From IMG/VR virus record IMGVR_UViG_3300026512_000006, positions 1 through 64,000 of that record: a stretch of DNA of 64,000 nucleotides; one strand, given 5' to 3'. Positions 1,365 through 64,000 of this stretch are shown in pieces. Made by a program: the position numbers and the translations under genes. Below the pieces are notes generated by a model that saw nothing but the letters and a program-made list of their open reading frames with translations, did not search any database and was not told where the DNA came from. Numbering within the stretch: the first letter of the stretch is position 1; each line of letters begins with the position of its first letter. The stretch comes from a virus.

Positions 1365-1893
1365 TTATACCTTTGTGTATATTAAATTATTATCAAGGCT
1401 CTCTTTAATGTCTTGGAAGTCTACAGAGCAGTAGTTACAGTTTTCTAGAGAAACGTTTGCATATCTTGGACCGTCCATATTGATGTCATAGGTATATCCA
1501 TGTATGTTGTACTTGTTACATAATTTATCTGGATGGGCTAGTGCATGGTTTAGTCATCAGCCTTCACGGCTATGTAGTCCATATACTTCATTAAAAGTAT
1601 CGTGTAGTTTTATAGTACGAAATTCTCCGAACTGATTCTCATGATTGCCCATTACTAAGTGGTTATCCCCTGGTAAAGATTTAATGAGGTCTAGTGAGTG
1701 CTCTTTAAAGCAGATATCCCAAGGAAGAATAGTACGTTTTGTTTGCCTATGGTACTTAAATAATTATCTAAGATGCACTCGTTATGTATTTTATCTGATT
1801 TGAATATTGGCTTGAATTTTTTAGTTATTCCAAGATGGCCTATATGTCAGTCTGATGTGTAAAATACTTTATTTGCGATAACCCCTTATACAT
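1365..1893 (-). pseudogene. calcineurin-like metallophosphoesterase, reading frame disrupted as sequenced
   Basis: Minus-strand translation shows VFYTSD[TGA]HIGH, LFFLG/DICF (GD motif), LVMGNHENQ and NIHGYTY. The frame needs +1 G in G-runs (plus-strand C-runs 1882-1885 and 1718-1720); 529 nt + 2 = 177 codons. It also needs read-through of TGA at 1847-1849, 1557-1559 and 1554-1556. Confidence 0.6.
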
Positions 1894-1901
1894 TTATATC
1901 G

Positions 1902-2135
1902 CTATTTTTCAGTTGGTTCATTTTCTAGTAAAGGATACCAGGATATCCCACCGAAGTCCTCTATGTTTATAGTTTGTATAGGTAACATCGTATTAATAGG
2001 AATAGATACTATAAAGCATTCTGTACAGTTACTTTGTATTACTGCATCTATTGCTTTATCTTTATGTGTGAAGATGCCTTGCATCTCCCACTCTGTATCG
2101 CTTATACGTTTACCTACGTACCATATCTTATTCAT
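1902..2135 (-). CDS. hypothetical protein (77 aa)
   Basis: ORF track; AAAGGAC SD upstream of the ATG; packed in a co-oriented array. Confidence 0.6.
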   Translation of the reverse strand: MNKIWYVGKRISDTEWEMQGIFTHKDKAIDAVIQSNCTECFIVSIPINTMLPIQTINIEDFGGISWYPLLENEPTEK

Positions 2136-2475
2136 TGTAGTCCTTTATAATTTTATAGGCTGTTTCTATATCTACAGTGAGATGCACATTAAATGTATCA
2201 GGAATAGCAAATTGAGGTAAGCCTTTTGTGGATCCCTTTAATTTTATATATCTATCTACTGCTGCTCTAAATAGTTTTAAATGGTATATTGAGTTTTTTA
2301 TTCTAATTTTACTATTAGGACTTAAGTCATAAATATCTAAAAAGTTGTGAGCCTTGTAGGAAGTATTACTGTTGGACATATGATAAGATATTTGAGATTT
2401 TAGCCATGTTGTACGGGTAGTACTATTAATTTTTTCTAACTGTACTTTATACGTAAAATTATTTAGTTTGTTCAT
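2128..2475 (-). CDS. hypothetical protein (115 aa)
   Basis: ORF track; start overlaps the stop of the upstream gene (translational coupling). Confidence 0.6.
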   Translation of the reverse strand: MNKLNNFTYKVQLEKINSTTRTTWLKSQISYHMSNSNTSYKAHNFLDIYDLSPNSKIRIKNSIYHLKLFRAAVDRYIKLKGSTKGLPQFAIPDTFNVHLTVDIETAYKIIKDYNE

Positions 2476-3095
2476 AACTTTATTATCCTTTCTATTTCAG
2501 AACGTATCCTTTCTGAGGGTACTTTAGTTGTTATTTTAAAATACCTACGTACTGCTTTTAAGGAAGCTGAATGTGGTATTAAGCTTTTAGTAGCTAAAAG
2601 ACGATAGAAACGATAGATACGTAAGGGGTCTTCCATTATACGAGATACTGGATTATCTATAAAGCGAAGGCAATGATTCTGTATGTCTGTTTTACCTTTT
2701 CCAGTAGGATCCAGAATAGTGTTATCAGTAAGAGACATATAAAGAGCATTAATAGTAAAATCCCTTCTATCAGCATCAGTGGTAACAGTGCCAAGCTTGC
2801 CACCATTATTGTCAGTATCTTTACGAAAGTTTGAAAGTTCAAAGTGATGCCCTTGTTTTGAGATATTTAATACTAAGTAATGCTTGCCAGTTTGTTTTAC
2901 ATTCCAGCCAGCTTCTACGAAGGCTGTAGCCATTGCGTCATAAGGTGCATCTGTTACTATGTCAATATCTTTAGAGGGTAGACCTAGTAACAAGTCTCTT
3001 ACGTACCCTCCCACTATGTAGGATGATGCATTTAGTGAGCGTAGAATTATAGCTAGCTGTAGGATTATTAAATCTCTATGGTGTAGTGATTTCAT
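2472..3095 (-). CDS. class II nucleotidyltransferase, CCA-adding / poly(A) polymerase head-domain protein
   Basis: GGYVRDLLLG..DIDIV, RRDFTINA and EDPLRIYRFYR motifs typical of tRNA nucleotidyltransferase/PcnB head and neck. Only 207 aa (minimal form). Confidence 0.75.
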   Translation of the reverse strand: MKSLHHRDLIILQLAIILRSLNASSYIVGGYVRDLLLGLPSKDIDIVTDAPYDAMATAFVEAGWNVKQTGKHYLVLNISKQGHHFELSNFRKDTDNNGGKLGTVTTDADRRDFTINALYMSLTDNTILDPTGKGKTDIQNHCLRFIDNPVSRIMEDPLRIYRFYRLLATKSLIPHSASLKAVRRYFKITTKVPSERIRSEIERIIKL

Positions 3096-4066: not shown

Positions 4067-4266
4067 TTTGATGCCTCACATTGTTTTTTAAAGCTTAGTT
4101 TCCAGTATTTAACTTGATGTTCTAATTGACTTAGTTGTTTATCAAAATCGTTAAAAATTGCATGTAAGATATTATCGTGTTCAAATTTTGTGATAGCATC
4201 TATATTCCCTGAACAGTCTACTTTTACTTTTTGTATATTTATATTTAGGGCTTCTTCTCTTGTCAT
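4063..4266 (-). CDS. hypothetical protein (67 aa)
   Basis: ORF track; ATGA overlap with the upstream exonuclease gene. Confidence 0.55.
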   Translation of the reverse strand: MTREEALNINIQKVKVDCSGNIDAITKFEHDNILHAIFNDFDKQLSQLEHQVKYWKLSFKKQCEASK

Positions 4267-5081
4267 AGCTTAGTTCCTAATAATGGTTTATAGTTATTGT
4301 TTGGTAAATATTTTTTAATTTTACTAAGTTTATTATAAGTTTTAACAGGACCATCTTTTAAAAACTTAGGACTGAATATGGCAGAAAGTTCTCTAGCTAA
4401 TTCTCCTTTTTCTTGTAGAAGTTTAGTATTAAGAGCTTTAGCCATTTTAATGTCTATATAAAAACCATTAGAAGTTTGTTCAGCTATTATAGAAGCTGCT
4501 TTATGCTCTATATCTATAACTGACTCTATTGGAAAGTTATTTTTTTCCATGAGGAATAATAGTAGTCTAGTTGTTAAATCAACATCTTGATTACAGTAGA
4601 TAGCCATTTCTTCTGTTAGTTTTGAAAAGTCATTAAAGTCTATTTTAAAATCTCCTAGACGTTGCCCGAAAGCTTTCAAGGAATAAGAACCATAAAGATC
4701 TTTGTCTATGCCTAATTGAGGGTCCATAGCGTATAAGTCATCTTTTGAAAATATTATTTTTGATATAATAAGTGTATCAAGTGGCTTAGGAGTTATATCA
4801 ACTCCTAGATGCTTACGAAGTTCATTGCAATCAAATCCTATAATATTATGTCCACATATATAATCACATTTATTTAGTTGTGTTATTGTTTGCATTAAAG
4901 ACCCATTTGAGTATGGTGTCCAATATTGTGTATAAGCTTTTGAGGGTGTTATTTTAGTGTTACCTTTTGAATCAATATCAATAAATGCTATACCATTACA
5001 GAAAATTTCTGTTGTAGGTATTCGATCTGTCTCTAAGTCAAATATTCCTATTCTTTTATTATGTAGCCATTTAGGTATCAT
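4263..5081 (-). CDS. family A DNA polymerase-type 3'-5' exonuclease domain protein (no polymerase domain)
   Basis: ExoI FDLETD, ExoII GHNIIGFD, ExoIII YCNQDVDLT. The ORF ends at a TGA that overlaps the next ATG. No motif A/B/C of a PolA palm/fingers anywhere in the window. Confidence 0.75.
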   Translation of the reverse strand: MIPKWLHNKRIGIFDLETDRIPTTEIFCNGIAFIDIDSKGNTKITPSKAYTQYWTPYSNGSLMQTITQLNKCDYICGHNIIGFDCNELRKHLGVDITPKPLDTLIISKIIFSKDDLYAMDPQLGIDKDLYGSYSLKAFGQRLGDFKIDFNDFSKLTEEMAIYCNQDVDLTTRLLLFLMEKNNFPIESVIDIEHKAASIIAEQTSNGFYIDIKMAKALNTKLLQEKGELARELSAIFSPKFLKDGPVKTYNKLSKIKKYLPNNNYKPLLGTKL

Positions 5082-19072: not shown

Positions 19073-19822
19073 TTAGCAGAGAGCATATGAAGATTTTTCA
19101 AGACCTTTTACTAACTTTGTTGTATTTATACTAAAGTCTTTTTCACAAAATTCTTCAAGATAATTGCCTTCAGCTATAACTTTGAGAGCTTCTTTGTAGA
19201 GTTCTCGTAATTTAGACATGTTATTAGGATGAGCTTGTAGTTCATCATGTATATGCGATACTTGAAAGTCTGCATTTTCTACTACGTAACGTATTACAAA
19301 GGCGTCTAAACTATGCACTACATTAGGAGCTAATGAAGTTTTTACATTTGATGGCATATTCTTTTCATAACGATAAGGTAAGTTAAGGCCTTCTTGTTCG
19401 ATAATTCCATCTATGTGTTGAGTTACTTTGACATGAGCTACATGTCCATCTGGGAGAGCCCATTCGTGGAACATAGTAGTATTATCCCATCTATCGTTGA
19501 GAGCTTTTAGGACATTCATAGCGCCGGGGAATAACTCTTGAAGGGTATCGTAGAAAGCATGAAGTTCTTCAGTATCTTCTCCAAAGGCTTCAAGAGGTTG
19601 TAGACGACTATTATACATAGTAGTCATTACAGGCTTTTTACAGAAAGAGCGTACTTGTTTAAATGACATTCCATCGAAGATAGTAGAGTGAGGTATTTTT
19701 TCTAACATACGTGTAGCTACTAGACTATAAGGGTCGGCTCTAATAGTTGTTTCGATATAGTTATTTTTATTTGTTTTAATATTACGTATTTCTGCTAAAA
19801 TTTGTTGTTTAGTGCGTTTCAT
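19073..19822 (-). CDS. T7-like (N4 RNAPII-type) RNA polymerase, C-terminal catalytic subunit (249 aa)
   Basis: RSFCKKPVMTTMYNS ~ T7 motif B RSVTKRSVMTLAYGS. APNVVHSLDA ~ APNFVHSQDG. SHIHDELQ ~ motif C IHDSFGT. C-terminal SSYALC ~ DFAFA. Has its own AGGAGG SD 4 nt upstream of the ATG. Confidence 0.85.
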   Translation of the reverse strand: MKRTKQQILAEIRNIKTNKNNYIETTIRADPYSLVATRMLEKIPHSTIFDGMSFKQVRSFCKKPVMTTMYNSRLQPLEAFGEDTEELHAFYDTLQELFPGAMNVLKALNDRWDNTTMFHEWALPDGHVAHVKVTQHIDGIIEQEGLNLPYRYEKNMPSNVKTSLAPNVVHSLDAFVIRYVVENADFQVSHIHDELQAHPNNMSKLRELYKEALKVIAEGNYLEEFCEKDFSINTTKLVKGLEKSSYALC

Positions 19823-19837
19823 ATTTCCTCCTACGGA

Positions 19838-19975
19838 TTATAAAGAAGCTAATTCTGCTTCTAATTCTTCAAGGCGTAATTGAGCCTCCTCTGTGTACTC
19901 ACGTATTATTTTAGGGTTTACATTAGAATTTTCAGCTGTAGTTGTACATCCACTTAGTAGAGACATTATTTGGAG
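19838..19975 (-). CDS. T7-like RNA polymerase middle subunit, exon 2 (45 codons + TAA)
   Basis: LQIMSLLSGCTTTAENSNVNP continues T7 ...SGIQHFSAMLRDEVGGRAVNL after motif A; ends EEAQLRLEELEAELASL-stop. Confidence 0.7.
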   Translation of the reverse strand, partial: LQIMSLLSGCTTTAENSNVNPKIIREYTEEAQLRLEELEAELASL

Positions 19976-20347
19976 CGTTGTATTCAAGTAAGGGCGTTAA
20001 TCTTACTTCGTTATTAAGTTACCAAATACATAACCACGTAACTCTTTAGGTATTCTACCATCATAAAGGTCTGCGCGTTTATTTATATTTATTTAACTTA
20101 ATAACTGCTTAATATTTCTATTAAGACTAGACTATATCATCTCCCGTTCTGGGAGTTCCGCACTTCGAATACACTTGTATTCTACGGACTTCATCTACTG
20201 TTCTAGTAGGTATGTCCTAGTCGTTGCACCTTCAAAGAGATTCCTCTCTAAGCTTGGCTCATGATTGCCTTCAGCGTTATCTGTTAAGGGTTCCCATGAA
20301 TTCACGGAATATTTTTAGAATAGCATTCCTGTTAAACTGGGCGATTC
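19976..20347 (-). mobile_element. group I intron (372 nt, no ORF) inside the RNAP middle-subunit gene
   Basis: The intron interrupts the conserved DATASG|LQ motif A. The exon ends in U and the intron ends in G. An R-like element GUGCAACGACUAGGAC (20214-20230) and an S-like element GAUGAUAUAGUCUAGUC (20125-20141) have complementary GACUA/UAGUC (P7). GCCC 5 nt into the intron can pair with exon GGGU (P1). The region is GC-rich and structured relative to the exons. Confidence 0.8.
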
Positions 20348-21019
20348 ACCCGAAGCTGTTGCGTCTAACCCCATATTATGTCCTATTGGATTGCCTTTTA
20401 TAACACCTTCGTACCATGCGTAGATAGCTTTTATAAGAAGTTGTGGGGTATCTGCTATAGCTATATACTTATTTAAAGCTTCTTCATTAATTTCATTATT
20501 TATAAAGATTTCTTTAATGACTTTATTAGCTTCTGTGATACGTTTAAACCATACATCTTTATCATAGCCTAAGCAATTTGCTATATCTATTTTGAGGTAT
20601 GTCATGCCCTCTGAGGTTAGTAATTCTTTGTCTGAGAAGCTTAACATAGCTTTACGGTATTCATTGCCTTGTATGTTACAGTGATACCCTTGTGAGTACA
20701 TTCGGCCTCTTTTGTCATATTTCCATCCAAAGTAGAATTTATTGCCATTTTCTAGTAAGTAGTCTATTACGTTGTTTGTTTCTTTGTCACGTAGCTTATA
20801 AGACTTTACACGTTCTTTTTCTTCTATAGCTGATAGAGGTTTGCTTGATGGCTTTAATGTATCTGTAAGTAAATGTAGAATATTCTCATTTAATTCCCAT
20901 GGAATTGCTTGAAGTTTATTGATTGCATTTTTATTTACTCGTTGCCCTACAAAGTTTCCTCTGCCTAATACTAGTGTGTCTTTGTCTTTAGTTAATAAAT
21001 GAGATACGATACGTTTCAT
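20348..21019 (-). CDS. T7-like RNA polymerase middle subunit, exon 1 (224 codons)
   Basis: WKYDKRGRMYSQGYHCNIQGNEYRKAML ~ T7 DWRGRVYAVSMFNPQGNDMTKGLL (T/DxxGR). LKIDIANCLGYDK ~ LKIHGANCAGVDK. GLDATASG ~ motif A FDGSCSG. The track ORF then runs into intron-encoded ESPSLTGMLF-stop. Confidence 0.85.
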
Positions 21020-21053
21020 AGAATTCCTTTAAGTATGTGGGGATAAGACTACA

Positions 21054-21644
21054 TTAGTAGTCTAGTGGTTTAATTAACATTGGCGGCAAGTATTGTGTAA
21101 ATTTGATACGTTTATATAAGTCTATTGAGACATGCATAGTTGGAATTACTACGGCAGAGTCTCCATGTATTTCTGTATGTCCTCCACGGTTTACTGCACG
21201 GTCTTCTTCTTTTACTACTCGTACATCAAATATTCCCATATCATGGAATTCTGATAGTATATCAATACCTGTTTGTACTGCGTCTATTTGGTCGTGATGA
21301 AGTGCTAGGCCTATTTGAGTTGCTACTGCTTGTAATGGAGCTACACCTGCAAAGGCTACCTCTTTACCTCCACGAATTAAGATATCTGGTTTGATAAGAA
21401 TTATAGAAGATAGCAGTGTATTTACTATAAGCTGTTTAGCGTCTTCTAAGGTATATAGAAGGCAAAGTTCTTCTATTCTGGCTTTACTGTCTAAGTCACT
21501 GCGTTCTTTTGTTAAGAAGAGCTCTGCACGGTCTAAGGCTAAGTCAATAGATGCTTGGTCTATTGATGATATTTCTTCTTGAATCCATTTAGTTATGTTA
21601 TGTTTACCTTGTACTGCTTCTGTTAGTAGTTGTGTTGAATACAT
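21054..21644 (-). CDS. T7-like RNA polymerase N-terminal piece (196 aa)
   Basis: The C-terminus TQYLPPMLIKPLDY ~ T7 FQPCVVPPKPW, which precedes the region aligned by the next ORF. Separate stop, 34-nt spacer and AAAGGA SD before the next gene. Confidence 0.6.
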   Translation of the reverse strand: MYSTQLLTEAVQGKHNITKWIQEEISSIDQASIDLALDRAELFLTKERSDLDSKARIEELCLLYTLEDAKQLIVNTLLSSIILIKPDILIRGGKEVAFAGVAPLQAVATQIGLALHHDQIDAVQTGIDILSEFHDMGIFDVRVVKEEDRAVNRGGHTEIHGDSAVVIPTMHVSIDLYKRIKFTQYLPPMLIKPLDY

Positions 21645-57409: not shown

Positions 57410-60400
57410 ATGCCAAGAACTGATGCATTCGGTAACATAATACCAGAACCGACTATCAATATCTCCGATAGTTGGTCGTTCCTCAATACCCCTACAATAC
57501 AAGATACAAAACAAGCAAGATTACAGCAACGTACAGCAGAAAAGCAAGCTAAATTATCAATGGCTAAAGATACTTTGCTTGGTATGAATGATGCAGATAC
57601 AGTAGTTACCAGTAACTTAGGAACAGTACGTACTAGTACTCCAGCTGCAGGTTATAACTATGATGCTATCGAGTCTGACCATATTACTAGGGTACTTGGC
57701 CGTGATGGTAAGTACGTAGAAGCTCCAACAGCAGACCCTTTAGAAGAGATACAAGCTAGTAGGTATAAGCAACGAGTTCAGCCAGATGCTGTAGCTAGAG
57801 TGCTGGGCAAGCCTGTAAATGAGCTTACTAAGCAAGATTACATAGATGTTGCTAATCAACAACAAATACAAGCTTTAGCTGATATGGCTAATGGCAACAA
57901 TGATTGGAAAGCCCCATTGATTCATGGTGTAACTAGCACTAATCTTACAGGTAAGTATGTGGATGAGTTTGGTAATAAAGTTGATGCACCTTTAAATGTC
58001 CCAATTACTAGTGCAGCCTTTGGTAAAGGTGCGTACGGGCGTACAGTAGCTTCTCTCGGAAGTGCGGATGGAACTAACACTACAGCGTTGGAAGTTAATG
58101 ATCCAACACAAAATGCTTATACTAATATACCTAGTACTAAATCTAGTGGTCAAATGACTCCCGAGGAATATGCTAAGGCAGTTACAGCCGGTATAAAAGA
58201 TACCCCAAGGAGTGACTCAAGTTGGTATTCTGATCTTATAAGTGGGATTGTTAAAGGTTTTACGTCTGGAGAGATGGAAACTGCTAATCTAGTAGAGGAC
58301 TTAGGCAGAGCGGCAGTAGGGGCTAAAGGTGAGGGGCTGCTTACTAATGAGGCTATAGATAAAGCAAGTACAGAGATAGCTAACAAGTTCGGATATGATG
58401 AAGCTGCTGTGAGAGCTGATATGATAAAACAGAAAAAGCTAGCCAATGAAGCATTTAAAGACACATATAATCCTGTAGAATGGGATTATGATAAGATACT
58501 AGATTTAGTAGGGCATTCGTTTAGCTCATTTTCAATGACAGGTAATTCAGTAGGTGCTATGTTAGCAGCTGTAGCCGGCGGAGGCGGAGTAAAACTAGTT
58601 GCTAAAGGTCTCAGTAAAGCAGTACTAAAGAAGACTACACAAGAAGCTATTAAAAAATCTGCAGAGAGTAGAGCAATAATAGAGGCAGCAAAAGCTAAGT
58701 TAAAAGATAAAGCAGTTAGCGGTGCCGATAAGTTTGCGCTTAAAAAAGAGATAGTTAAAAACAGAAAGAATTTAGTAGCTACTGAAGCTGCTTTTAAAGC
58801 TGCTAAAGAAATGGCTACACCAGTAGCATATGGTATGGCAATTACTGAACAAGATTTAGCAGAGTTAAGAAAGAATGGGGAAGAGATTACTCCTCAAAGA
58901 ATAATATCGGCTACTATTGCTAATACACTGGCTATAGCAGTTCCAGAACTAGCTGTGGCTAAGTTCCAATTAGGGTTTGCAGTTGATGCGACCGGTAAAG
59001 TATTAAAGGGCGATACACTTAAGAAGAGAGCAGCTGACGCGTTTAAAGGAGCAGTAACTGCCTATGGCACTAGTGTAGGGTTTGAAGTGCCTCAGGAAAT
59101 GTTACAGCAGGGAGTGCAAGCACTAAATCAGAAATGGGGTACAAAAGAGTATGAAGGAAAGTCGCCATTAGATATAGTAAAAGAAGAGGCCAGTAATGTG
59201 CTTAGTGCTGGTGTAGCAGCTGTAGGGATGAGTTCACATATGATGGCTCCCGGTGTTGCTATTAAAACAGCTAAGATACCATTTGGTGCTAAATTGAATG
59301 ATAAGTTTAAACCAAAAGATAAAGATACCCAAGTAGATATAGCTGAAGAGACTATAAAAGCTAACCCTAGTGTGAGTCCAGAAGCTATTAAGAAAGTATC
59401 CGAAAAGATGGTTAAGGTTGAAGGAGATTCGCTAGCAACACCTACTGACGCTGACTTGAAGTCTACTCCGATAGCTCCTACTGAGGTTAATAAGGAGGCA
59501 CATGCAGCTGTGGCTAAGCAATTGCATGATAATGAAGGTGGTGTAGCAACTGTTGAAGAAATAACTCCTGTAAGTAAAGAGAAAGAAGACGCATTGAATG
59601 GCTCACTAAAGCAATTTGACAGTGTATATGAAGATGCATTAGGACGCCTTACTAAACCTGTTGCAGATATTACTAAAGCTAATACTATACGAGAGGAAGC
59701 TGGACTACCAATTGATGAAGCTAAGAATAAGCAGTATACAGAAGCTGTTGCTAGAGGGTCTAAGGATTTCTTAGGCTATATCATAAAAGCTAAAGATGAG
59801 GCTATTAAGCAAGGTGCTGGGCCTAATCAGATAGCAGCTATGGATGCTAAGATAGAGAGACTTGTACCTTTAGCTACAGCGTCTAATGCTAAAGAGCTTC
59901 ACGCTATATTAACAGATGATAAGGTTACTAATTCAGAGAAAGTAATGAATATACTTGGTAGTTCAGCTGCGTCACTAGAGGATGTAGAGAGTGCTATTAA
60001 GCTTGAGGGCATATCTGAGAATGAGAAGAAACTACTTAAGTACAAAGCTAACGCATTAAAGAACTATAAGGAAGTTGCTGGTGAGAAGTTACTAGGAGGT
60101 GGTAGTAAACCTGGAGCGTTACAGTGGGCTGCAATGTTAGTAGAGGGTATAAAAGATAAGAAAGCTTTAGAGAATCTAAATGACTTTATTGGAGGGCAGT
60201 ACGATAAGGTAAAAGCTTTTCAGAATGAAGTATCTAGATGGGATAGAGAGAACAAGATGCCTTGGACTATTGACGGGCATAAAGATGCAAGTAAGTATTC
60301 TGAAGACCCTAAGGCTATGAAAGATACTAAAAGACTATATAGGAGTGAGTATCTTAAAGACCATAAGTCAGCAGATGATGCAATAGTCAGATACGGTAAT

Positions 60401-61402
60401 ACGACTATAAGAGGTATCGCTAGTATAGACGCATTGCTAGATACCCTTAAAACTGAACATAAGAGTATGCAAGATTTAAGAGAGTTAGCTGATAGTTTTG
60501 GTAAGCCAGAAGATGGGTTCCCTGCGGGCAAGACTGAGAAGATTACCGAGGCAGATACTACTGAAAAACCTAGTGATACTAATACACAAGTAGACAGTAT
60601 TAAAGAGGAAGTTGTTACCGAGACTGCTAAGCCTAAAGAGGTGTCACCAGAAGCACAGAAACCTACGGAGAAGGCAAAGAAAGAAGTTAAAGGTAAAAGT
60701 ACTAAGGAAGAGCCTAAGAGAGCTCCTAGAGTAGCTAAGGAGGCTGTAGCACCTACTAATGGTGATGGAGTTATACTAGAGAATCTTAAACCTTCTGACC
60801 AGAAATGGATTAAGGCTTTTAGAAATAAAATAGCTATATATGCTAATATTACTGAAGCAAGTAAACGAAAGTTTATAAAATTAAAGGAAGAGTCTAAGAA
60901 GCCTTATAAGAAGAAGATTAATAGACGAGCAGAGGAAGTGAAAGCAGCATCTGAAATACCTATTGGAGGATCTGAGGATGCAAAAAATACAGCTGTAAAA
61001 ACTGCAATGAAAAAAGATATTACTAAATCAAAGTATGAAAAATATACTAAAGAAGATATAGCTGAAGAGTCTGAAATATTTGAAAGAGAGTATGCTAGAG
61101 TTGTAAAGAAATTAGAAGCTTTTACTACAGAAAAAGAGCTTGCTGGTACTATTAAAGTTTTTAAAGATATAGATGGGCTAGTTGGCGAAGATCTATTAGC
61201 AGCATTAGTTGAAGAGCTAGTCAAGTTAGAAAGTAATGAAGTTGTAGTTAATCCTGTAATAGAAAAGACTACATCCGTTAAAATTGATACTATGAAAGCT
61301 TTAACTAACAAAAGAGAAGTTATAATAAATAAATTAAAAACAGCACCAGCAGGTATTCGTAAGATAATTATGGATAACCTTAGTAAGTGTAGTGGAGTAT
61401 AG
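57410..61402 (+). CDS. giant virion/internal (ejection-type) protein (1330 aa)
   Basis: ORF track; no TGA/TAG/TAA over 4 kb; lies immediately upstream of the virion RNAP gene. Confidence 0.65.
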   Translation: MPRTDAFGNIIPEPTINISDSWSFLNTPTIQDTKQARLQQRTAEKQAKLSMAKDTLLGMNDADTVVTSNLGTVRTSTPAAGYNYDAIESDHITRVLGRDGKYVEAPTADPLEEIQASRYKQRVQPDAVARVLGKPVNELTKQDYIDVANQQQIQALADMANGNNDWKAPLIHGVTSTNLTGKYVDEFGNKVDAPLNVPITSAAFGKGAYGRTVASLGSADGTNTTALEVNDPTQNAYTNIPSTKSSGQMTPEEYAKAVTAGIKDTPRSDSSWYSDLISGIVKGFTSGEMETANLVEDLGRAAVGAKGEGLLTNEAIDKASTEIANKFGYDEAAVRADMIKQKKLANEAFKDTYNPVEWDYDKILDLVGHSFSSFSMTGNSVGAMLAAVAGGGGVKLVAKGLSKAVLKKTTQEAIKKSAESRAIIEAAKAKLKDKAVSGADKFALKKEIVKNRKNLVATEAAFKAAKEMATPVAYGMAITEQDLAELRKNGEEITPQRIISATIANTLAIAVPELAVAKFQLGFAVDATGKVLKGDTLKKRAADAFKGAVTAYGTSVGFEVPQEMLQQGVQALNQKWGTKEYEGKSPLDIVKEEASNVLSAGVAAVGMSSHMMAPGVAIKTAKIPFGAKLNDKFKPKDKDTQVDIAEETIKANPSVSPEAIKKVSEKMVKVEGDSLATPTDADLKSTPIAPTEVNKEAHAAVAKQLHDNEGGVATVEEITPVSKEKEDALNGSLKQFDSVYEDALGRLTKPVADITKANTIREEAGLPIDEAKNKQYTEAVARGSKDFLGYIIKAKDEAIKQGAGPNQIAAMDAKIERLVPLATASNAKELHAILTDDKVTNSEKVMNILGSSAASLEDVESAIKLEGISENEKKLLKYKANALKNYKEVAGEKLLGGGSKPGALQWAAMLVEGIKDKKALENLNDFIGGQYDKVKAFQNEVSRWDRENKMPWTIDGHKDASKYSEDPKAMKDTKRLYRSEYLKDHKSADDAIVRYGNTTIRGIASIDALLDTLKTEHKSMQDLRELADSFGKPEDGFPAGKTEKITEADTTEKPSDTNTQVDSIKEEVVTETAKPKEVSPEAQKPTEKAKKEVKGKSTKEEPKRAPRVAKEAVAPTNGDGVILENLKPSDQKWIKAFRNKIAIYANITEASKRKFIKLKEESKKPYKKKINRRAEEVKAASEIPIGGSEDAKNTAVKTAMKKDITKSKYEKYTKEDIAEESEIFEREYARVVKKLEAFTTEKELAGTIKVFKDIDGLVGEDLLAALVEELVKLESNEVVVNPVIEKTTSVKIDTMKALTNKREVIINKLKTAPAGIRKIIMDNLSKCSGV

Positions 61403-61403
61403 A

Positions 61404-64000
61404 ATGGCATGTAGTATAAAGAGTATTATAAGAGAACTAGTAAGTAAGCCTACTATTAGTGAAGATAAATACCCAGAGGTGTTCAAAGACCTTAAAGAGC
61501 TTCAAGCAGTACAGCAAGAGATGGCTATACTAGCTAAAGCTATGCCTCCTAGGGAGTTGGTCACTTATAGGATAGAGAGTGATAATAGATACCAAGAGCT
61601 GCTGCAAGAGCGTGAAGATATTAATAACGCATCTAAAGAGAAGCTTGATAAGATATTCGAGAATCTAAAAGCTAAAGGCGGTAAGAAGTTTGCAGCTAAG
61701 CTGGAACTAAATACGAAGAAGCTACTAGGTTGGATTAATAACTACAAAACTGAACTTAAAGAACTTGAAGATGAATTAGATCCAGAACTATATTCTGCTA
61801 AAGAGATTACTAATACAAAGAAAGCTATTAAACGAATAACTAGTAAGATAACTGAGTATGAAGTGTTTATAGCTAAAGGTAAGAGAGACGCTACGTCAGC
61901 AAAGTCTAGAGACACTAAGGCGTTCAATACTAAAGAGAAAGAGGCATTGAAAAAAGCTGAAGCTTTAGAAGACGTTAATAGACGCATTAGAGAGCTTAAG
62001 CAAACTTACAGTGCAGGATTTTTATCTATAAATAATACTCCATCTAAGTTAAAAGCTAGGAAGGATAAGTTACTAAATTACATGAGAGCTAAACCTGTAT
62101 ACAACAACTTAGTAAGATTTAAAGAGGATGTGAATTCATTTACAAAGTTACTAGGAAAGGTTGAAGTAACTGATGAACATATGCCAGAGGCTAAAGAAGT
62201 TATGGAATTTCTAGAGAAAGCTATTAACTATACTACAGCAGATAAGATGTATCAAGGTATAGACTTAAGAGATTACAGCATCCCAGACGGAGCTGAAGCT
62301 TATCAGAATATATCTAGACTAATGTTTGTGGAAAATGCTGACAGGAAACTAATACTAAGACCTGAGGCAGTTACAGCTTTAGCTGCAGCTTCTACAGATT
62401 GGTTAGCTAATTCGGTTGATAGATGGAATGAAAGAACTGACGACGATGTAAACAGATTCTTTGGCATTCCTGCAGGAGCACAAGTTACAGCAGAGCAGCG
62501 TAAAAGGCTAGTTGACGTAGACACACTTACTAGTACTGCTGCTAATGCTATAGGGCAAGCTGTAGTTAAGTCTCTTGGTATTAAACCGGATTTAGATAAG
62601 TCTGACGTGTCAGAGATATTAGTTGCTAAGCTAAGCACAGAGCTAGGACTGATAGGGCTAGAGTCGATGAAAAGTGGTAAGCTACTAGACATGAATACTA
62701 AAAATGACACAGAAGTGTATGGTGAAGCTGGTAAAGGAAACAAGATAGGTATTGCTACCTTGACAAGTATTGACAAACTTAAAGCTAATCAAAGAACTAA
62801 GGTATTTGGTTCTAAAGTAAGTTTAGGTTTAGCTACTAAAGCTATTACAAAAATACTAGCTGCTGAAAGTAGCAGTAAAGGCCCTAGGTTTAGCAAAACT
62901 AGAGGAGATAAAGAAGTAATAAATCAGTCAGCTCAAGGTAAATACTTTACTACAGCACCAAAAACTCAAGAAGCTCTTAATAAGCACGAGAATGTTGAAT
63001 GGAATTGGAATGATGATTTCATGACAGATTTTAATAGTATAGTAGCTGACGAAAAAGAAAAGCAGAGACTTAGAGTATTTCTAGGATGGCAAGACCCTGA
63101 GAAAGTACATAGTACTAACAGGGAGGGCGTCAACGGCAAGAATTTAGCTATAGAAGCTAACATAGATCACATGATGACTCTAGAGGCTGACATGAAGAGT
63201 ACTGGTAAGACTAAGATGTTTTTCAATTACTTCTTTGGGAAGAATGGTAGATTTTATATAGACTCTAATACTTTTAACCCACAAGGTACAAAACTACATA
63301 GATTTGCTATTAATACTAAGCCTGAGGTAATAGAGACACAAGAAGATAAAGACATGATGTTATTATCTTTAGGTATGGCATTTGGTCTTGACATAGATAA
63401 GATGACTAAAGATAGCTCTATCAAAGAATGGGATAATATTAAAAGTCAAATAATTGAAATGGTTAAAGGCCATGAGAGCACATTGGATATAATGGATTTA
63501 CTGTACAGTAAAGATGTTAAAGACTCTAAAGGTAAAGGTGTCACACCTCACGATCCAGAGCATGCTTTAGCTGGGATAGCCGAGCTTAGAAGATACATAG
63601 AGTATATTGAGGCTAACAATGGGGATAGTAAGGGCTTTGAGGCTAAGCTAGTGCTTGAGGTAGATGCAGTAACTTCAGGATATATACTAAAGACATTACA
63701 GATGCCACTAATTGACAATCCAGAGTACCACTTAGAAGGTGGTGGAGTATTTGTTGGAGAGATGGTAGATGGCAAACCAGCATTCAAGTACAGCTCATTT
63801 GGTGAGCAAGCAGAAGATAAAGGTACTTTAGATGCATATCAGAAGCCTGCTAAAGAGATGGGTGAACGTATGCCTAAAATAGTTAAGAAGTATAAAGGCT
63901 CTGAAGCTATAGGAAGAGCTGTAGAGCTAGCACTAGGTAGTGACCTGGGATCAGCTGAAAATATAGCAGAGATATCTAGAAAGTTTATGAAGTCTCCGTT
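61404..64000 (+). CDS. N4-like virion-encapsidated RNA polymerase (vRNAP), 5' part; continues beyond the window
   Basis: The frame is open from ATG 61404 to the window end (865 codons). FFGKNGRFYIDSNTFNPQGTKLHR ~ T7 DWRGRVYAVSMFNPQGNDMTKG (T/DxxGR). LVLEVDAVTSGYILKTLQM ~ motif A LPLAFDGSCSGIQHFSAM. Minus-strand ORFs listed here are low-complexity shadows. Confidence 0.8.
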   Translation, partial: MACSIKSIIRELVSKPTISEDKYPEVFKDLKELQAVQQEMAILAKAMPPRELVTYRIESDNRYQELLQEREDINNASKEKLDKIFENLKAKGGKKFAAKLELNTKKLLGWINNYKTELKELEDELDPELYSAKEITNTKKAIKRITSKITEYEVFIAKGKRDATSAKSRDTKAFNTKEKEALKKAEALEDVNRRIRELKQTYSAGFLSINNTPSKLKARKDKLLNYMRAKPVYNNLVRFKEDVNSFTKLLGKVEVTDEHMPEAKEVMEFLEKAINYTTADKMYQGIDLRDYSIPDGAEAYQNISRLMFVENADRKLILRPEAVTALAAASTDWLANSVDRWNERTDDDVNRFFGIPAGAQVTAEQRKRLVDVDTLTSTAANAIGQAVVKSLGIKPDLDKSDVSEILVAKLSTELGLIGLESMKSGKLLDMNTKNDTEVYGEAGKGNKIGIATLTSIDKLKANQRTKVFGSKVSLGLATKAITKILAAESSSKGPRFSKTRGDKEVINQSAQGKYFTTAPKTQEALNKHENVEWNWNDDFMTDFNSIVADEKEKQRLRVFLGWQDPEKVHSTNREGVNGKNLAIEANIDHMMTLEADMKSTGKTKMFFNYFFGKNGRFYIDSNTFNPQGTKLHRFAINTKPEVIETQEDKDMMLLSLGMAFGLDIDKMTKDSSIKEWDNIKSQIIEMVKGHESTLDIMDLLYSKDVKDSKGKGVTPHDPEHALAGIAELRRYIEYIEANNGDSKGFEAKLVLEVDAVTSGYILKTLQMPLIDNPEYHLEGGGVFVGEMVDGKPAFKYSSFGEQAEDKGTLDAYQKPAKEMGERMPKIVKKYKGSEAIGRAVELALGSDLGSAENIAEISRKFMKSP

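Follow-up and report, generated by a model that had tools for sequence, protein, structure and literature searches.

Our analysis of a 64,000-nucleotide (nt) stretch of viral DNA (positions 1 to 64,000 of IMG/VR record IMGVR_UViG_3300026512_000006, hereafter the window) indicates that the gene for a phage RNA polymerase is interrupted, within one of its catalytic motifs, by an RNA with the full architecture of a ribozyme. The polymerase is of the N4 RNAPII type, and the 372-nt element at 20347..19976 on the minus strand, which parts a Gly codon from a Leu codon in motif A of its middle subunit, is very probably an IA2-like group I intron. The evidence comes from the exact restoration of the polymerase reading frame upon excision, from covariance-model and folding analyses of the intervening RNA, from compensatory base changes among homologous introns, and from the remains of a homing-endonuclease gene inside a peripheral helix.

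Results

Excision restores motif A to the nucleotide

The minus-strand open reading frame (ORF) at 21019..20315 encodes 234 amino acids that read ..NPIGHNMGLDATASG (GLDATASG), followed by ESPSLTGMLF and a stop codon; 372 nt downstream the frame reopens at 19975 with LQIMSLLSGCTTTAENSNVNP.. (LQIMSLLSGC..VNP). The insert begins at G20347 and ends at G19976, and a first-pass annotation of the window had placed it exactly so, with the exon frame stopping within it and resuming at 19975. Exon 1, as taken from the ORF list (20348..21019, minus strand), comprises 224 codons of the middle polymerase subunit, ends in ..GLDATASG and has U at 20348 as its last base, while exon 2 (19838..19975, minus strand) starts at C19975 and adds 45 codons and a stop (LQIMSLLSGC..ELEAELASL*), colinear with the uninterrupted proteins P0002-P0016. 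Excision joins 672 and 138 nt into a frame of 810 nt that encodes 269 amino acids, with GACGCAACAGCTTCGGGT|CTCCAAATAATGTCTCTAC as the ligated-exon junction (20348|19975). The spliced product matches PHROG 2166, ‘N4-like RNA polymerase’ (E 3.5e-46), as well as Pfam PF00940, and a protein search returned, besides the window's own 234-residue ORF (P0001), more than 30 clusters of proteins of about 270 residues at 55-71% identity and 93-100% coverage.

Aligned with at least 15 uninterrupted homologues of about 270 residues (a count that covers the aligned clusters among some 45 close ones), the spliced product runs without a gap through GLDxTASG[LI]QxMSALSGC..NSNVHAK..EAQxRLxELEAELASL. Because these homologues show no gap relative to it, the SG|LQ junction is correct to the nucleotide, and the same colinearity upholds the proposal that motif A of a T7-like polymerase is interrupted. 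A register one base upstream would give an identical protein but needs an exon-terminal G and an intron-terminal C, for which reason the canonical register is preferred. The family profile aligns ‘ldatasGlq’ with ‘FDGSCSGIQ’ of T7; the insertion point accordingly falls in motif A, DATASG|LQ, at a Gly/Leu codon boundary corresponding to T7 G542|I543, and the junction lies five residues past the equivalent of the catalytic Asp537. In the unspliced RNA, translation ends at an in-frame TAA (20315..20317, minus strand, from ORF 20315..21019) upstream of helix P3, and a stop before P3 is found in the unspliced frame of all four intron copies.

These features bear directly on whether the gene might simply be split, the 234-residue ORF and a 49-residue ORF being translated separately and their products assembling as the N4 RNAPII subunits do, with the structured RNA serving some other role. 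The family is already encoded in separate pieces (196, 269 and 249 amino acids), and a TTG-started ORF does span exon 2. Nonetheless, we find this reading hardly credible. By sequence reading there is no Shine-Dalgarno motif before the TTG (19987) or the ATG (19966) of exon 2, unlike the neighbouring polymerase ORFs, true subunit genes that are preceded by AAGGA or AGGAGG. The break would also fall inside a catalytic motif, five residues past the Asp; the ESPSLTGMLF extension has no counterpart in the uninterrupted homologues, a similar ESPSLAGMLF occurring only in P0017, the one aligned relative with the same intron; and the RNA between the exons has the score of a complete group I ribozyme. 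Likewise considered and excluded were an intein, programmed bypass and a frameshift, the insert being 372 nt long, containing stops in the exon frame and scoring as a ribozyme.

The insert folds as an IA2-like group I ribozyme

A focused scan of 19800..20500 (701 nt) returned a full-length match to the Rfam group I model RF00028 (model positions 1-253) on the minus strand at 20414..20108, with 69.3 bits where the gathering score is 50, and E 1.9e-17, and so bears out the group I identity that the first-pass annotation had proposed. A permissive Rfam scan of all 64 kb found RF00028 at the same place as its sole hit (E 1.7e-15), and a profile search (nhmmer) detected no second copy of the intron core in the window. 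The minimum free energy (MFE) of the element corresponds to a z-score of -4.67, none of 100 shuffled sequences folding as well. The Rfam model stops at the P9 hairpin, 132 nt short of the proposed 3′ splice site; across this 3′ tail the MFE fold consists of a 12-base-pair (bp) long-range P9.1 stem and a P9.2 hairpin, followed by GAAUACAACG. A 53-nt insertion in the Rfam alignment, between the 5′ strand of P7 and the 3′ strand of P3, resolves into two hairpins, P7.1 and P7.2, both of which covary. These are the extra helices of subgroup IA2, in an arrangement typical of phage IA-type introns, and the architecture is IA2-like. Introns from Twortvirinae and Bastille taxa were earlier classed as IA2, a class that is itself heterogeneous (PMC11878797). 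The window averages 35% GC; a claim that the intron is more GC-rich than its surroundings holds marginally for the core (40%) and for the intron as a whole (37%), and fails for the 3′ tail (31%).

The individual helices, all on the minus strand, can be followed from one splice site to the other (fractions give the base pairs changed on both sides among the homologous introns described below). P1, read from the sequence at 20339..20351, pairs exon GGGU (20351..20348) with the internal guide GCCC (20342..20339), such that the last exon base, U 20348, pairs with a G of the guide and forms the U.G wobble that marks a group I 5′ splice site. P3 (20309..20303 with 20162..20156; 4/7) encloses P4 to P7.2 (20156..20309), beginning with P4 (20299..20294 with 20264..20259; 3/6), P5/P5a (20289..20268) and P6/P6a (20258..20228; P6a 4/5). 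The R element GTGCAACGACTAGGAC (20229..20214) holds the 5′ strand of P7, GACTA at 20222..20218, and the S element GATGATATAGTCTAGTC (20141..20125) holds J8/7 and the P7 3′ strand, TAGTC at 20134..20130; both elements lie where they had first been noticed, and their complementary GACUA and UAGUC form P7. P7.1 (20217..20186; P7.1a 4/5) and P7.2 (20182..20167; 4/6) follow, and the Rfam alignment places P8 at 20155..20141 and P9, capped by a GAAA tetraloop, at 20125..20108. Beyond the model, the MFE fold gives P9.1 (20010..20105), whose 12-bp stem pairs GUUAUUAAGUUA (20105..20094) with UAACUUAAUAAC (20021..20010), and the P9.2 hairpin (20008..19986; 4/6). The 3′ tail, within 19976..20008, finishes in the terminal (omega) G at 19976 and is conserved as GAAUAUAAUG and GAAUAUAAAUG in two related introns (L042 and L003, respectively), which likewise end in G. 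The exon-terminal U, the pairing of guide GCCC with GGGU and the terminal G, all anticipated by the first-pass annotation, are thereby present in the sequence.

Antisense to the intron core, a TTG-started ORF of 59 amino acids runs on the plus strand (window 20224..20403), and L003 has a similar antisense ORF of 36 amino acids at the matching place. It is most likely a by-product of conserved intron sequence and not a gene.

Homologous introns covary across the predicted structure

Introns were confirmed in the loci of four protein clusters (P0001, P0017, P0041 and P0042) among the roughly 45 close ones. The same intron, scoring 73.6 bits, occupies the same site in two ENA contigs (L001 and L002) with 72% protein identity in exon 1; L001 ends in the P9.1 loop just after AAGGAG, and L002 slightly earlier in the same loop. 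A Logan contig (L003; exon 1 50% identical) has an intron of 88.4 bits at the identical codon boundary, ..ATASG|IQILSALACC, with a 230-residue ORF inside P9.1. A JGI contig (L042; exon 1 52% identical) contains a homologous intron of 62.8 bits, spanning 1583..2614 of that locus, with a 236-residue ORF in P9.1 and an insertion point 6 nt upstream of the window's site, GLDATA|SGIQIMSAITGC (DATA|SG). Its guide GGCC pairs with exon GGCU, where the window's guide GCCC pairs with GGGU; the guide covaries with the exon, and L042 looks like a natural case of an insertion-site shift. The window's intron sequence is identical in an independent assembly (L043), the same sequence being present in three contigs in all. 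Empty sites occur in the close IMG/VR relatives L004-L007 and in all N4-like isolates examined, the intron-less target in L005 and L006 reading ..ACGGCATCGGGT|TTACAG...

Covariation was assessed on four introns (window, L001, L042 and L003) with the endonuclease body removed and the structure written from the window sequence. Standard pairs fill 97.8% of the 316 cells, and 35 of the 83 pairs are changed on both sides. The covariation score of 0.508 compares with 0.197 for shuffled alignments, 0 of 500 of which reach the observed value, and sliding the 3′ partners by 1-3 columns leaves 34-41% pairing and 1-6 compensatory pairs. Compensatory changes occur in every helix except P6 and P7, which are invariant (P7 is uninformative for that reason), and they extend to P1, P9.1 and P9.2, helices that the Rfam model does not cover; counting by hand, helix by helix, agrees with the computed result.

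Several observations weigh against a functional intron. P1 of the window copy has only 4 bp, and a canonical P10 cannot form in it, with the +1 C of exon 2 facing C5; by eye, a 3-bp P10 is possible in each of L003 and L042. P10 pairing is common in the group I family without being obligatory. The default gathering-mode Rfam scan of the whole window returned nothing, which is a filter effect because the focused and permissive scans both recover RF00028. The covariation rests on four sequences only, with helices chosen with the window sequence in view, and splicing of the window intron is predicted from sequence. The weak P1 and missing P10, together with the deletion of the endonuclease gene described below, would be expected of a decaying relic, group I by descent and incompetent for splicing, in a polymerase gene that is a pseudogene or works as fragments. 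We regard such a relic as very improbable. The core helices are all intact, with the high proportion of pairing cells across homologues noted above, and the Rfam score is well over threshold; both exons are open and conserved, and motif A is restored exactly. The same sequence recurs in three contigs, and a 102-kb phage genome is unlikely to retain an essential polymerase subunit in broken form.

That a 69-bit RF00028 hit is missed by a full-window gathering-mode scan is an observation in its own right, and routine scans of whole contigs may overlook some group I introns.

A deleted homing endonuclease

The window intron contains no intact endonuclease ORF. The first-pass annotation, which had called the intron ORF-less, was correct in this respect but missed a 27-codon remnant of a deleted gene. 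The loop of P9.1 is the place of the endonuclease gene in related introns, and stems homologous to P9.1 flank that gene in both L003 and L042. A tblastn search with the L042 endonuclease aligned to nt 217-339 of the window intron at 59% identity over 44 amino acids (E 6e-13; 4.6e-9 against the whole window). The convincing part spans intron nt 259-339 (20089..20009, minus strand), where 27 in-frame codons without a start codon, NINKRADLYDGRIPKELRGYVFGNLIT, match the L042 C-terminus NINKRASLTDGRIPEGLRGYVFGNLET; by our own count, 22 of these last 27 endonuclease residues are identical. The remnant codons overlap the 3′ strand of P9.1. Because the last 27 endonuclease codons remain, the ORF-less intron is a deletion derivative, in which a gene once housed in the P9.1 loop lost about 206 codons and its ribosome-binding site just past the 5′ strand of P9.1. 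With this gene lost, the window copy can no longer mobilise itself.

An alternative deletion, joining the endonuclease start codon to the 3′ end at a TGAT microhomology and leaving a 16-codon mini-ORF (20064..20014), was dropped once tblastn revealed the 27-codon in-frame remnant starting further upstream; the mini-ORF is out of frame and probably meaningless.

The intron ORFs of L003 (230 amino acids) and L042 (236 amino acids) are 53% identical to each other and match PHROG 314, ‘homing endonuclease’ (E 1.9e-13 and 6.8e-18, respectively). Pfam and PDB sequence searches with the two endonucleases gave no match, and a GIY-YIG-like N-terminus (YVYEI..KYIGVRS) is a reading by eye without Pfam or PDB support. 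By tblastn, the window holds no free-standing or other copy of this endonuclease family. At the nucleotide level, identity between the window and L001 reaches 92.9% in the intron core and only 71.1% in exon 1. Because the core is more conserved than exon 1 and the distribution of the intron is patchy, the comparison points to lateral spread by homing and not to vertical descent alone. The window and L001 show no sign of co-conversion in the form of raised exon identity beside the intron: judged by eye, the final 30 exon bases agree at about two-thirds of positions, against 71% over the whole exon.

The host polymerase and its phage

The first-pass annotation had assigned the intron to a T7-like RNA polymerase gene. 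The homology to T7 RNA polymerase stands, the family profile aligning with its residues 318-562 (E 1.2e-15). A single T7-like gene does not, since the polymerase is encoded as three consecutive minus-strand ORFs (21644..19073) of 196, 269 (spliced) and 249 amino acids. The first, a separate gene at 21054..21644 (minus strand, 196 amino acids), is the N-terminal part and matches PHROG 2166 positions 19-181 (E 1.2e-07); the middle ORF, spliced from 21019..19838 (minus strand, 269 amino acids), matches PHROG 2166 positions 191-431 and PF00940 positions 3-118; and the C-terminal ORF at 19073..19822 (minus strand, 249 amino acids), which contains the motif B/C region and has its own AGGAGG, matches PHROG 2051 (E 1.3e-44) and PF00940 positions 287-365. 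The three-ORF layout recurs in L001, L042 and L043, and in P0038 (461 amino acids) the first two parts are fused.

Against the structure of N4 RNAPII (PDB 6dt7), the family profile matches chain A residues 146-268 (E 7.7e-28) and chain B residues 6-101 (E 1.4e-15). By these matches, the host gene encodes the middle subunit of an N4 RNAPII-type, T7-like polymerase. It resembles N4 RNAPII, a gp15/gp16 heterodimer, in matching both RNAP1 and RNAP2 and in sharing its genome with an N4-type virion polymerase ORF. It differs in that the gp15/gp16 break is fused here, its position (profile positions 134-138) falling inside the middle ORF, while the gene is broken at two other places to give three ORFs.

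Viewed by eye, the conserved tail of the middle subunit (19838..19885, minus strand) is heptad-like, EAQxRLxELEAELASL, and the start of the C-terminal subunit (19822..19760, minus strand) is a basic, helical-looking stretch, MKRTKQQILAEIRNIK. Subunit assembly may use these two segments as docking helices.

An open frame of at least 877 amino acids on the plus strand (61368..64000), running off the end of the window, matches PHROG 2206, ‘virion RNA polymerase’ (E 5.9e-51), and the virion RNA polymerase is a hallmark of N4. Because the window encodes this frame together with terminase, portal and tail genes, its source is a distant N4-like phage. P0001 is encoded on a 102-kb contig; megablast with the polymerase region found no match among 50,697 phage records, and the nearest isolates are N4-like phages, at less than 40% protein identity. 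By analogy with N4, which we consider reasonable in view of the 6dt7 match and the virion polymerase frame, the polymerase would transcribe the middle genes, as the first-pass annotation had supposed.

Two further ORFs concern the gene content of this phage. One of 1330 amino acids (57410..61402, plus strand) overlaps the start of the virion polymerase frame; it matches no PHROG and could encode the N-terminal portion of that giant protein as a separate piece. The other, of 272 amino acids (4263..5081, minus strand), resembles phage DNA polymerases in their exonuclease part alone (PHROG 17 positions 670-892 and PHROG 403), and the DNA polymerase may likewise be encoded in pieces.

Discussion

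The work presented here describes a mobile element of a familiar kind, in a host gene and at a site for which we found no earlier report in the open-access literature. We propose that the pre-mRNA would fold into a ribozyme extending from P1 to P9.2, in which the guide GCCC holds the 5′ splice site in P1 for attack by an exogenous guanosine after U 20348; the freed exon would then attack after the terminal G 19976, joining 20348 to 19975 and completing the 810-nt frame for the 269-residue subunit. The sequence directly shows the restored frame, the features of both splice sites, the helices and the family of the fold, as well as what remains of the endonuclease gene; the catalytic activity of the intron in self-splicing is predicted. 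Because translation of unspliced RNA would stop at the TAA at 20317..20315, production of this polymerase would depend on splicing: the unspliced product would keep the motif-A aspartate and lose the remainder of the motif along with the C-terminal 45 residues.

The reaction in vivo might proceed only with help from the ribosome, a chaperone, or a phage or host protein, in which case the intron would not be strictly self-splicing. As reportedly conveyed by the title of a 2007 article by Sandegren and Sjoberg, which PMC10914365 cites, splicing of T4 introns in vivo needs translation of the pre-mRNA, which counts in favour of such assistance, as do the weak P1 and absent P10 of the window copy. 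A further precedent is that four of eight Bastillevirinae phage introns were spliced only in infected cultures (PMC11878797). Against these stand the peripheral elements P7.1, P7.2, P9.1, P9.2 and the L9 GAAA tetraloop, which usually stabilise the autonomous fold and are present and covarying here. On balance we consider a strict requirement for help unlikely, and favour self-splicing by the intron RNA.

In sequence, the intron core is similar by blastn (73-85% on pieces) to the structural-gene introns of Twortvirinae, annotated as Intron_gpI, and to the I-BasI intron in the DNA polymerase of Bastille. Like the IA2-type phage introns more broadly (T4 td, nrdB and nrdD; Twort and the Twortvirinae; the DNA polymerases of SPO1 and Bastille), it matches RF00028, carries P7.1 and P7.2 between P7 and the 3′ strand of P3, has P9.1 and P9.2 extensions and an early in-frame stop, and is inserted in a catalytic motif of an essential phage enzyme. 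It departs from them in its host site, motif A of an N4 RNAPII-type polymerase of the single-subunit family, and in the endonuclease of its relatives, which belongs to PHROG 314 and lacks a Pfam or PDB match.

Among phage RNA polymerases, PhiPA3 has a group I intron in its multisubunit virion RNA polymerase gene (PMC11620839). Both systems combine a group I intron and a homing endonuclease in an RNA polymerase gene, with presence varying among related phages. In contrast to PhiPA3, which pairs a beta/beta′-like polymerase with an active HNH enzyme, the polymerase here is T7/N4 RNAPII-like and the endonuclease of the window copy is lost.

Within the same broad phage group, mobile elements of this class are already on record: a td intron in the N4-like Vibrio phage pVa5 (PMC5746245), gp24, DNA polymerase and gp43 genes of JA1 and VCO139 that are split by HNH insertions (PMC3670811), and homing endonucleases located within RNAP2 of Pseudomonas phage ZC08 and, in G7C and EE36P1, between RNAP1 and RNAP2 (PMC5418858). 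RNAP2 is already known as a target of endonuclease insertion; for ZC08, the section consulted reports the insertion only and makes no mention of a ribozyme (PMC5418858). None of these papers on N4-like phages reports an RNAPII with a group I ribozyme in motif A, and we found no earlier account, in the open-access literature, of an N4 RNAPII-type or T7-type polymerase whose motif A is interrupted by a group I intron.

A separate element was noticed in the Vibrio phage pVco-5 (KY612839; L034 4490..5350), where an unannotated group I intron-like sequence (RF00028 36 bits, below threshold) carries a 182-residue endonuclease VII/HNH ORF. It interrupts RNAP2 behind ..RKDLKQPL, beside MTHFYFS, a stretch that we read as the motif B region. 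It has a 19-nt P3-P5 core, CGTGAATTCATGGGAACCC, in common with the window intron. Elements of this type are also present in pVco-7 and Vibrio phage phi 1, while RNAP2 of VCO139 is uninterrupted at that position. A scan of JGI metagenome contigs with the same 19-mer gave five loci, all of them chance matches in GC-rich unrelated DNA.

With respect to endonuclease loss, a parallel is the T4 nrdB intron, which carries a truncated I-TevIII gene that is intact in RB3. There, too, the ribozyme is kept, the endonuclease gene has decayed or been deleted, and relatives keep an intact copy. The window intron differs in the deletion of about 206 codons and the ribosome-binding site, which left a clean 27-codon 3′ remnant. 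ORF-less introns have been discussed in connection with ‘collaborative homing’ (PMC3984707).

More speculatively, the motif-A site could be a contested homing site that one intron lineage has invaded repeatedly, moving by 6 nt (DATA|SG versus DATASG|LQ) with a matching change of guide, such that these introns would form a natural record of ectopic re-targeting. Reverse splicing may have caused the shift, as may imprecise repair driven by the endonuclease. The endonuclease-less copy may persist because synthesis of the middle-gene polymerase is gated by splicing, or because an occupied site protects against the endonuclease of co-infecting relatives, a form of protection shown for PhiPA3 and PhiKZ. 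We think it quite unlikely that this scenario holds as a whole.

While an intron in a catalytic motif of an essential phage enzyme is the expected kind of finding, its recognition corrects the annotation of this phage clade, whose exon-1 ORFs appear in the protein collection searched as separate, truncated proteins of 220-235 amino acids (P0001, P0017, P0041 and P0042) that, where the source names them, are called only ‘DNA-directed RNA polymerase’. With it, motif A of the N4 RNAPII-type enzyme joins the essential active sites of phages in which group I introns have settled. The loci compared here further constitute a natural series, with an intron bearing an intact endonuclease, a gene-deleted intron, an intron shifted by 6 nt and many empty sites, that is suited to studying the homing cycle and the re-targeting of guide sequences. 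If this polymerase is indeed the middle-gene enzyme, as in N4, the infection programme of the phage would hinge on an RNA-catalysed step.

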